From positions 1 through 49,056 of the forward strand of contig DAORIO010000001.1 of the NCBI GenBank assembly GCA_035438585.1: DNA of 49,056 bases. Direction: 5' to 3'. This document shows positions 25,075 to 44,367 of the stretch, piece after piece. The notes under the pieces were generated by a model, which searched no databases, was not told the origin of the DNA, and saw only the letters and a program-made list of their open reading frames with translations. Position numbers and translations under genes: made by a program. Source of the DNA: Minisyncoccota bacterium. GTDB lineage: Bacteria; Patescibacteriota; Minisyncoccia; Phycocordibacterales; UBA9973. Position 1 is the stretch's first letter, and every line of letters starts with the position of its first letter.

Positions 25075-25103
25075 TTGACATTAAATATTTACAGGAGTAC
25101 TAT
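25075..25103 (+). promoter_or_regulatory. Promoter TTGACA-N17-TACTAT with no protein gene downstream
   Basis: TTGACA 25075-25080, TACTAT 25098-25103. Confidence 0.55.
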
Positions 25104-25109
25104 TGTTAA

Positions 25110-25343
25110 AAATAAATAAATTTAAAAGTCATGGAAACTGAAGTTTAAAAAAGTATCCTTAAAATCTTAAACAACAAATTATTCTCTGGGTTGTCTATAG
25201 GCAACCAACTTGTGTCTGAAAATTTCAGACTGGACAAACACAAACAGATTGATAATTTGGCTTGGCGGAGTAGCACTAAGTTGGGTCGTGGACTCAAGGC
25301 GTTTGAGATTTTAGTAGAGCCGGAGGTGTACTCCGGCTTTTTG
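25110..25343 (+). ncRNA. Candidate orphan transcript of about 235 nt (promoter to terminator), class unknown
   Basis: Bounded by the promoter above and the terminator AGCCGGAG-GTGTA-CTCCGGCT plus T5 (25318-25343). Internal palindromic hairpins GTCTGAAA/TTTCAGAC (25214-25229) and CTCAA-GGCG-TTGAG. It contains only a TTG-initiated ORF that runs through the terminator. Confidence 0.35.
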
Positions 25344-25347
25344 TTTT

Positions 25348-25522
25348 GTGATCCCGGTAGGGTAATCTTTCGTTACACGAACAGTATACCTTTTTGGCAA
25401 ACTCAGAACGAGTTCTTCGTTTACATCGAAAAGCTTTTCGATTCCTACACAGACGACGAGCAGTCGTCGTCCTCGGGATCACCAAATAAAAATGGCCACC
25501 AAATGGTGACTCATTTTTAAAC
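25348..25522 (-). ncRNA. tRNA-trailing structured element, copy 2 (host tRNA-Arg GCG)
   Basis: Read on the minus strand, the parts in order are as follows. TGGTGATCCCG is antisense to the acceptor 3' strand including CCA. Hairpin GACGACGA-CTGC-TCGTCGTC (25452-25471). GTAGGAATCGAA is the exact antisense of the T-arm (25437-25448). The core is AAGCTTTTCGATGTAAACGAAGAACTCGTTCTGAGTTTGCCAAAAAGG. GGTATACTG follows, then P4 TTCGT-GTA-ACGAA. The sense decoy is GATTACCCTACCGGGATCAC (25348-25368). Confidence 0.75.
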
Positions 25523-25597
25523 TGGTGATCCCGGTAGGAATCGAACCTACATTTTAACTTCCGCAAAGTCATGTCCTATCCATTGAACGACGGGACC
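25523..25597 (-). tRNA. tRNA-Arg (anticodon GCG), CCA encoded
   Basis: Manual cloverleaf on the minus strand: GGTCCCG/CGGGATC acceptor, loop TTGCGGA, T arm GTAGG-TTCGATT-CCTAC, ACCA end. Confidence 0.85.
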
Positions 25598-34761: not shown

Positions 34762-34763
34762 CA

Positions 34764-34806
34764 AAACAAAAAACACTACTTAGATTATGAGTAGTGTTTT
34801 TTGTTT
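34764..34806 (+). terminator. 17-bp terminator hairpin after tRNA-Arg(UCU)
   Basis: AAACAAAAAACACTACT (34764-34780) / AGTAGTGTTTTTTGTTT (34790-34806). Confidence 0.7.
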
Positions 34807-34810
34807 ACTA

Positions 34811-34990
34811 TTTTGTCCCTGCCAGGAATCGAACCGAAGGCGCTAATTTTTAAGGAGCGAAGCGACTATAAAAATTAAGCGTTTCGACCGCAGGGAGAGG
34901 CGATTCCTGTACTGACCCTGTAAGGGTCGATATCCTGGCGGGGAAATTAAGCGTTTCGACCGTAGGGGGAAGCGATTCCTGGCCGGCAAT
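34811..34990 (+). ncRNA. tRNA-trailing structured element, variant copy (host tRNA-Arg UCU) with an internal 37-nt duplication
   Basis: TGTCCCTGCCAGGAATCGAACC (34814-34835) is a near reverse complement of the tRNA 3' end. A different long hairpin spans 34839-34881. The shared module is GTACTG + ACCCT-GTA-AGGGT + CGATATCCTGGCGGGG (34909-34943). A 37-nt direct repeat lies at 34873-34909 and 34945-34981 (3 mismatches). Each repeat unit ends in GCGATTCCTG. Confidence 0.65.
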
Positions 34991-35053
34991 CGTGACAAAA
35001 TAACACTTTATGATATAGTTCTTTGGTAATTACAGGTTGTAATTATATTGTGC

Positions 35054-44167: not shown

Positions 44168-44171
44168 CAAA

Positions 44172-44200
44172 TAAAAAATCCTATTTTGTAGGATTTTTTA
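44172..44200 (+). terminator. Terminator after tRNA-Leu
   Basis: AATCCTA-TTTTG-TAGGATT, then T6. Confidence 0.75.
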
Positions 44201-44367
44201 TTTTAAGCGAAGATTTGAACGGGAAAGGGGTCGGGAAAACGGTAGTTTTCCTGTGGAGGAGGCAGTGACATTGAGCTTGTCGAAGTGGAGCGTTGGAACC
44301 GCCTGGTTCCAAAACACAGCGAGTTTACGAGCGAGTAGTGAAATTCTCCCCCTGCGCACAAATAAAA
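44201..44367 (+). ncRNA. tRNA-trailing element, divergent-core variant (host tRNA-Leu)
   Basis: AGATTTGAAC (44211-44220) is the reverse complement of the T-loop/stem. Three unrelated hairpins follow: GGAAAAC/GTTTTCC, GACA/TGTC and GGAACC/GGTTCC. The element ends in GTGAAATTCTCCCCCTGCGCACAAATAAAAAAT (44337-44369). That stretch is a 29/33 copy of the tRNA 3' end plus trailer. Confidence 0.6.

Follow-up and report, generated by a model that had tools for sequence, protein, structure and literature searches.

The DNA that follows the tRNA-Arg(GCG) gene of a Minisyncoccota bacterium has, by our estimate, about a one in two probability of being a copy of a non-autonomous mobile or integrative element that is old and has been inherited vertically, a member of a Patescibacteria family that would insert at tRNA 3' ends. 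The window, by which we mean the whole stretch analyzed, comprises positions 1 to 49,056 of contig DAORIO010000001.1 (assembly GCA_035438585.1, genome labeled G000). The anatomy of the element, the family to which it belongs, the covariation of its stems, its presence or absence at orthologous sites, its modular turnover and the better conservation of its mirror arms can be read directly from the sequences. The mobile-element reading is favored because orthologous sites are patchily occupied, because tandem arrays, truncated copies and tRNA-less copies exist, and because of the sharp boundaries at T54 and G57 and the spread of cores. What is new in the present analysis is the matching of the arms to the tRNA as opposed to decay of the second tail copy, the rule that the arms follow the genomic flank rather than CCA, the presence and absence of the element at Arg(GCG), and the swapping of cores together with their spread within genomes.

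All parts of the Arg(GCG) copy are on the minus strand and are described here in the order in which they follow the tRNA. The tRNA-Arg(GCG) gene (25523-25597; ARAGORN, Rfam tRNA 57.6 bits) encodes its CCA, and its last ~23 nt, consisting of the T-loop, the T-stem 3' strand, the acceptor 3' strand and ACCA, are the segment that the element mirrors and copies. A terminator-like hairpin, term1 (AAAAATGAGTCACCATTTGGTGGCCATTTTT, 25488-25518), recognized by its fold and by an alignment across six genera (64-88% identity), forms the apex of a long quasi-palindrome built by the tRNA tail and the antisense arm. As term1 is homologous to the hairpin found at occupied Arg(GCG) sites of other genera, it would be part of the inserted unit. 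The antisense-acceptor arm TTGGTGATCCCG (25474-25485) is a perfect complement of CGGGATCACCA(A), that is, of the acceptor 3' strand plus CCA. It is followed by the P2 hairpin GACGACGA-CTGC-TCGTCGTC (25452-25471), which is defined by both fold and covariation and reads GACGACGA-CUGC-UCGUCGUC as RNA. P2 is located at the exact meeting point of the acceptor and T-stem complements, resulting in a tRNA-like three-way junction. Its loop is conserved and its stem covaries freely, with compensatory changes in nine of nine pairs; by inspection, the stem sequences are unrelated to both the body and the identity of the tRNA. The antisense-T arm GTAGGAATCGAA (25437-25448) complements tRNA TTCGATTCCTAC at 12 of 12 positions, covers the whole T-loop and T-stem 3' strand, and ends exactly at T54. 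As the chance expectation for a 12-mer in a 300-nt stretch is ~2e-5, the arm matches at Arg(GCG) are not due to chance.

The remainder of the copy is a folded, conserved core of ~70 nt overall (25369-25436) plus a second tRNA tail. The core is of the type we call type-I and consists of a long irregular hairpin, P4-P6, with a nearly invariant single-stranded AAAAGGTATACUG (25382-25436; 116 bits, E 4e-24), followed by the P7 hairpin UUCGU-GUA-ACGAA (25369-25381), in which the loop is conserved and the stem covaries. The second, or 'decoy', tail copy GATTACCCTACCGGGATCAC can be written GATT-AC-CCTACCGGGATCAC (25348-25367). Its 14 nt of CCTACCGGGATCAC are an exact direct repeat of the tRNA tail (25348-25361 and 25525-25538), and it has a 2-nt insertion relative to GATTCCTAC. 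Such a repeat is present in most copies of the family. The original prediction, made from the sequence alone, had given coordinates and parts for this element that are all present with the exception of the start. It had the element begin with TTGGTGATCCCG; the arm is there and is complementary to the tRNA including the encoded CCA, although the true start is earlier because a 36-nt terminator hairpin between the tRNA and the arm had been passed over. The predicted end, a second copy of the T-stem and acceptor 3' strands with a 2-nt insertion, is where it had been placed.

After the second tail copy there is an A-tract plus a hairpin, GCCGGAG-UACACC-UCCGGC (25319-25347, minus strand), delimited by comparison with the flanks of empty sites. 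This segment (CAC AAAACAAAAA plus hairpin) resembles the 'CAC AAAAYAAAAA hairpin' flank seen at unoccupied sites and may be the original flank of the tRNA; on the plus strand, it reads as a terminator. The neighbors of the locus encode an Amidohydro_2 protein (plus strand) and a DUF5673 protein (minus strand). No ORF with a family match is found inside the element. The ORFs 25191-25520 (plus strand) and 25294-25572 (minus strand) lack any Pfam match and share sequence with both the tRNA and the folded element; as had been proposed, they are in all likelihood artefacts. A separate observation concerns 25075-25347 (plus strand), where a consensus-like promoter, TTGACA-17-TACTAT (25076-25104), and a hairpin/T-run (25319-25347) flank ~235 nt in which there is no credible ORF. 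A 13-nt closing inverted repeat (25160-25172 and 25301-25313) is found within this region, which has no counterpart in the syntenic region of the sister species G001 and is single-copy in G000. The possibility that 25105-25347 is a degenerate second module was rejected, the sequence being single-copy in G000 by both blastn and nhmmer.

The Arg(GCG) copy is one of many. The G000 assembly (551 kb in 48 contigs, 35% GC, 82% complete) has 31 tRNAs, and the same architecture is found behind ~20 of these, with several alternative cores and each copy matched to its own tRNA. Within the window, five further tRNAs share the arrangement, and here too each copy corresponds to the tRNA that it follows. 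A covariance model of the type-I core (P2, the long hairpin P4-P6, and P7) was built from ten copies, in which 25 of 32 pairs have compensatory changes. Of 151 genomes in the same taxonomic family, 103 contain matches to the model, >650 in all, counts that come from a sample of related and thus not independent genomes. Copy number ranges from 0 to 20 per genome, with 13 matches in G000. Among 44 distinct type-I sequences, 98.2% of the cells are paired and 30 of the 32 pairs have double-sided changes. None of 500 shuffled controls reached the observed covariation and slid controls gave ~47% paired cells. The CUGC loop, GAAAAGC, AAAAGGURUACUG, and the GUA loop are nearly invariant unpaired motifs. 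In the tRNA-sense strand, there are 15 G-U against 6 A-C among 1152 cells, a weak excess and hence only a weak hint that this is the strand that folds. In Rfam 15 there is no matching family (only tRNA reaches the gathering threshold and nothing meaningful appears at E values up to 10), and full-text literature searches gave no description of such elements, only the CTXphi/Xer papers that serve below as an analogy. The family thus appears to be an undescribed group of small, gene-less elements that are very common in Patescibacteria.

Copies vary in their details. A terminator usually precedes the arm, whereas in the trailers of some copies (tRNA-Lys and tRNA-Val) there is none between the tRNA and the arm. 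Within the window, the tRNA-Arg(UCU) trailer (34763-35000, plus strand) has another core type, a contiguous antisense arm that lacks the CUGC hairpin, and a 72-nt tandem duplication; the tRNA-Leu(GAG) trailer (44169-44365, plus strand) also has another core type. Among the tRNAs themselves, ARAGORN made unusual calls of tRNA-Ile(UAU) and tRNA-Ser(ACU) in G000, and called an unusual tRNA with a 4-base anticodon loop (gtca) adjoining 5S rRNA on contig C8 of that genome.

The arms and the second tail copy differ in how well they match the tRNA. These segments were scored in 21 type-I copies located directly behind a tRNA. The antisense-T arm is perfect in 14 of the 21 (0.38 edits per 12 nt) and the antisense-acceptor arm in 11 (0.71 edits per 8 nt). 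In contrast, the T part of the second copy matches the tRNA perfectly in only five copies (1.24 edits per 9 nt) and the acceptor part in six (1.62 edits per 8 nt). Complementarity between the antisense arms and the second copy is the worst of all (1.38 and 1.86 edits). The asymmetry of the Arg(GCG) copy, in which the antisense-T arm had been reported as a perfect match to the real tRNA and an imperfect match to the second copy, is therefore a rule of the family. The suggestion that the arms are kept matched to the functional gene is upheld by these scores and by the two comparisons that had been proposed as checks. For the Arg(GCG) copy, the predicted gain from pairing of the antisense with the tRNA tail is -24.0 kcal/mol versus -14.0 kcal/mol for pairing with the decoy. 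Among orthologues, the arms follow the T-stem of their own genome (GTAGG, CCAGG, or GCAGG) and independent drift was not seen. The idea of a decoy maintained as a competitor was not supported, the second copy being the least conserved part of the element. By its pattern of decay, the second tail behaves like a displaced or duplicated copy of the target (attR-like) rather than a maintained competitor.

The original prediction also attached special meaning to coverage of the encoded CCA, and this was not borne out. Behind 23 tRNA genes that lack CCA, the arm matches the post-transcriptionally added CCA in 0 of 23 cases; in 19 of the 23, complementarity instead continues at least 3 nt, and usually 6 or more, into the genomic flank. 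Since the arms follow the flank and never CCA, its coverage in the Arg(GCG) copy is incidental, the quasi-palindrome simply running past the discriminator. The same finding rules out mature tRNA as the partner of the arms, either as an antisense target or as a primer, and primer-binding-site and mature-tRNA antisense readings were rejected on these grounds. The sequence matches thus point to the gene (DNA) or its primary transcript as the pairing partner. The limits at the other end are sharply defined. In 24 of 28 copies the end of the mirror arm falls at T54, and in none does the arm reach into the T-stem 5' strand; direct-repeat identity begins, modally, at G57 of the T-loop.

The orthologous tRNA-Arg(GCG) site is occupied in seven relatives, empty in ten, and cut by contig ends in two. 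Every empty site has an intact tRNA followed directly by a terminator or a gene. At the occupied sites, which span six genera, the post-tRNA flank, first hairpin, and antisense arms can be aligned at the 64-88% identity given above and the cores are of different types. Retention of the element at this site is patchy, yet its left arm remains alignable across the six genera. Groundwater metagenomes commonly contain the DUF5673-tRNA-Arg(GCG) synteny, with sites that are mostly empty or occupied by other element types. When metagenomes were searched for strains in which this locus is empty, none was found; the search gave only a strain that belongs to the sister species and is arranged as in G001. 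In G001 itself the Leu(GAG) and Val(TAC) sites are empty with the tRNA intact, and at Leu(GAG) a single terminator and downstream flank are orthologous to those behind the second copy in G000. In G001, tRNA-Arg is separated from the type-I unit by an additional module. The cores of the Arg(GCG) copy and its G001 orthologue are 81% identical, close to the ~80% DNA identity of the syntenic region, and the copy is therefore old and vertically inherited. The G001 gene and the second copy both read CAC-A, and thus the CCA of the tRNA-Arg(GCG) gene very likely arrived with the element. Comparison of filled and empty sites suggests an inserted unit composed of tail, hairpin, mirror arm, and core or, equivalently, of hairpin, mirror arm, core, and tail copy.

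Other copies show signs of mobility. A tandem array in another genome (L027, G097:C26:1-1714) has at least three units arranged head-to-tail, two of which have 100% identical cores; the second tail copy plus terminator that separates the units acts as the tail of the next unit. Six of 37 copies have no upstream tRNA and still have T-arm-like arms, and in copy L024 the arms look tRNA-derived and have no match to the local upstream sequence. An orphan type-I copy in G000 (C2:33250-33650, minus strand) has perfect arms to a 3' fragment of tRNA-Ser that consists of the T-arm and tail and has no 5' part. Past its second copy, the sequence of this orphan is similar to that flanking tRNA-Ser(GCU) and tRNA-Ser(ACU), both located on the same contig. 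Behind Ser(UGA) of G001 (L080/L081) there is a truncated copy of which the left arm alone is left (antisense-acceptor, CUGC hairpin, and antisense-T). This arm is followed by a 282-aa ORF having an HExxH motif and then by a P7-like hairpin and tRNA-tail-like sequence, an arrangement that may be a gene-carrying version of the element frame.

The cores have their own history. Twenty of 38 cores are most closely related to a core that follows another tRNA of their own genome, whereas essentially one case, the Arg(GCG) copy and its G001 orthologue, has its nearest relative behind the same tRNA in another genome. Two copies in genome G022 have 100% identical cores and different arms. From these comparisons, cores appear to be swapped and spread within genomes, and the finding of one core lineage behind many tRNAs with matched arms may reflect either core exchange between resident copies or re-targeting. 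In the 82% complete G000 genome, there is a single tyrosine recombinase (C22:793-1296), located away from the element, which would be the first candidate for a mobilizing enzyme; searches for a serine recombinase, a reverse transcriptase, and a Y1 transposase found none. These findings count against mobility, as does the fact that no excised form, circle, or strain-level polymorphism of the Arg(GCG) copy was seen.

If the element is mobile, the inserted unit would comprise a tRNA tail that runs from about G57 to the discriminator and on into a few bases of the flank, followed by a terminator-like hairpin, the mirror image split by P2, and an exchangeable folded core. Joining would occur in the T-loop or the tail; a site inside the T-loop fits the sequence as well as one immediately past the tail. 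The functional tRNA would then end in an element-borne tail and terminator, and the original tail would be displaced downstream as the 'decoy' and subsequently decay. When viewed as excision, the empty site would be the tRNA joined directly to AAAACAAAAAGCCGG, and the excised unit would be a circle of ~175 nt in which the tail of the second copy adjoins the base that follows the tRNA discriminator. In a single strand (ssDNA or RNA) the tail and mirror image could fold back to form a duplex copy of the target that has a tRNA-like three-way junction; the helices predicted around P2 for the antisense arms with the tail (or the second copy) are 9 bp and 5-12 bp. Such a fold-back would presumably be required by a mobilizing enzyme or by homology-dependent joining, and we propose that this need keeps the mirror arms in agreement with the tRNA sequence. 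Note that we infer integration in the T-loop, the single-stranded intermediate, and the direction of displacement. It is unlikely that the mirror arms act as a built-in nucleic-acid guide that pairs, in a single strand, with the tRNA-gene tail or transcript and forms with P2 a tRNA-shaped three-way junction, which a host enzyme of tRNA handling or recombination would recognize and so join the element at T54-G57. If true, this would be programmable DNA insertion at tRNA genes with a guide re-specified for ~20 different tRNAs. A bridge-RNA-like (IS110) reading was rejected because both arms cover one target segment rather than adjacent half-sites and no recombinase gene is attached.

The serious rival to the mobile-element reading, which we rate well below even odds, is a cis-acting trailer RNA useful to the host. 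In read-through transcripts, the antisense arms would bind either the nascent tRNA, in its 3' half, or the second copy (as a tRNA-like minihelix), and the outcome, included in the same estimate, would be a control or check of 3'-end maturation or a tRNA-like small RNA processed by RNase P or RNase Z. In favor of such an RNA, every copy is co-oriented with its tRNA, and conservation keeps the antisense arms matched to the real tRNA. Moreover, the whole cis transcript is predicted to prefer the tail:antisense pairing (-105.2 kcal/mol), the alternative, in which the cloverleaf contributes -22.3 and the terminator together with the self-folded element -66.0, amounting to about -88 kcal/mol. The strong covariation, the invariant single-stranded motifs, and the weak G-U excess would equally fit a functional RNA, and the Lys and Val copies that have no terminator between the tRNA and arm also favor this reading. 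However, a terminator usually lies upstream of the arm, and the same tRNA is patchily occupied among close genera (7 filled versus 10 empty), with copy numbers that fall to zero in some genomes and reach 20 in others. A trailer RNA also sits poorly with the tandem, truncated, and tRNA-less copies, with an orphan having perfect arms to a mere tRNA 3' fragment, and with unrelated core types within the same frame. Finally, the second copy, which a minihelix would need, decays.

An antisense RNA that acts in trans on mature tRNA, buffered by competition for its arm from an internal decoy, seems hardly credible. Both pairings are possible on paper, that with the tRNA being 10 kcal/mol the stronger, and the arm does cover CCA in the Arg(GCG) copy, but across the family the arms match the genomic flank and never the added CCA (0/23). 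In addition, no other segment is as poorly conserved as the decoy, and its pairing with the arm is often poor; the interval from the terminator to the arm has no evident promoter; and a mature, modified, and folded tRNA is a poor antisense target. It is very unlikely that the copies have neither function nor dedicated mobility and that replication template switching (quasi-palindrome correction) around tRNA terminators makes the palindromes while the rest drifts. This would account for palindromes that extend through non-functional flank bases (26+26 nt perfect at Ser(UGA), for example) and for a mirror arm that is perfect even beside a non-functional tRNA fragment. Left unexplained would be the sharp T54/G57 boundaries and a conserved, covarying core with the CUGC hairpin at the same junction in >650 matches from 103 genomes. 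Template switching may nevertheless contribute to keeping the arms matched.

Patescibacteria genomes are tiny, yet a large share of their tRNA genes bear these elements, and thus the family accounts for a major part of their intergenic DNA, lacks annotation, and gives rise to false ORF calls. Were the fold-back arms to direct insertion, tRNA genes would be targeted in a new, sequence-programmable way in which no integrase is linked to the element. Were the trailer to act on the tRNA transcript instead, the maturation of tRNAs would be subject to an additional layer of control throughout the lineage. Either reading provides a concrete, testable system with T54/G57 boundaries, a covariance model, and orthologous sites both empty and filled.

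Parts of this architecture recall known systems. The primer-binding site of retroviruses and LTR elements is complementary to ~20 nt of the tRNA 3' end, and the Arg(GCG) copy is similar even to the TGG opposite CCA. It differs in that the arms of the family match the gene flank and not CCA, that the complement is interrupted by a hairpin, and that no reverse transcriptase was found in G000. The 3'ETS-leuZ of E. coli is a tRNA 3' external transcribed spacer RNA that pairs with other sRNAs. The family resembles it in its tRNA-trailer position and possible release by tRNA processing enzymes, whereas the predicted pairing is with its own tRNA rather than other sRNAs, and the copies are mobile-like, patchy, and modular. 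MITE-like repeats (REPIN, Correia/NEMIS, RPE, and the IS200/IS605-derived PATE) are likewise small, non-coding, hairpin-rich, and multicopy and form near-identical clusters within genomes. In contrast to those repeats, the ends of the present elements are specific to the target tRNA rather than common to all copies. The arms differ with each tRNA, and shared terminal inverted repeats or hairpins, by which MITEs are recognized, are absent; the conserved part is internal (core plus P2 loop). Moreover, a 17-20 nt target is duplicated together with an inverted copy in place of a short target-site duplication.

The resemblance to integrase-type integrative elements at tRNA genes (genomic islands, prophages, and their non-autonomous cis-mobilisable derivatives) extends to several features. 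Both are located at tRNA 3' ends, have a direct repeat of the tail that starts in the T-loop, leave the tRNA intact and place the second copy at the far end. Both also undergo tandem accretion, have empty orthologous sites with an intact tRNA in relatives, and have the repeat/crossover region within a symmetric tRNA arm (here the T-arm). The unit of the present family is, however, just ~140-190 nt long and gene-less; it encodes no recombinase and has no linked integrase. It also adds an inverted target copy split by a hairpin and a covarying folded core, and it has versions for ~20 different tRNAs within one genome. The attP(+) site of CTXphi is a hairpin folded in one strand and used by XerCD (PMC3442271, PMC4246890). 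Both it and integron attC sites are similar to the present elements in that inverted copies ~90 nt apart can fold into a target-like duplex in one strand, in the extra-helical or bulged features of the stem, and in an integrated form that is not simply reversible. The target of the present family is a tRNA tail rather than dif or attI, and we regard CTXphi attP(+) and attC as the closest working analogy, in principle only.
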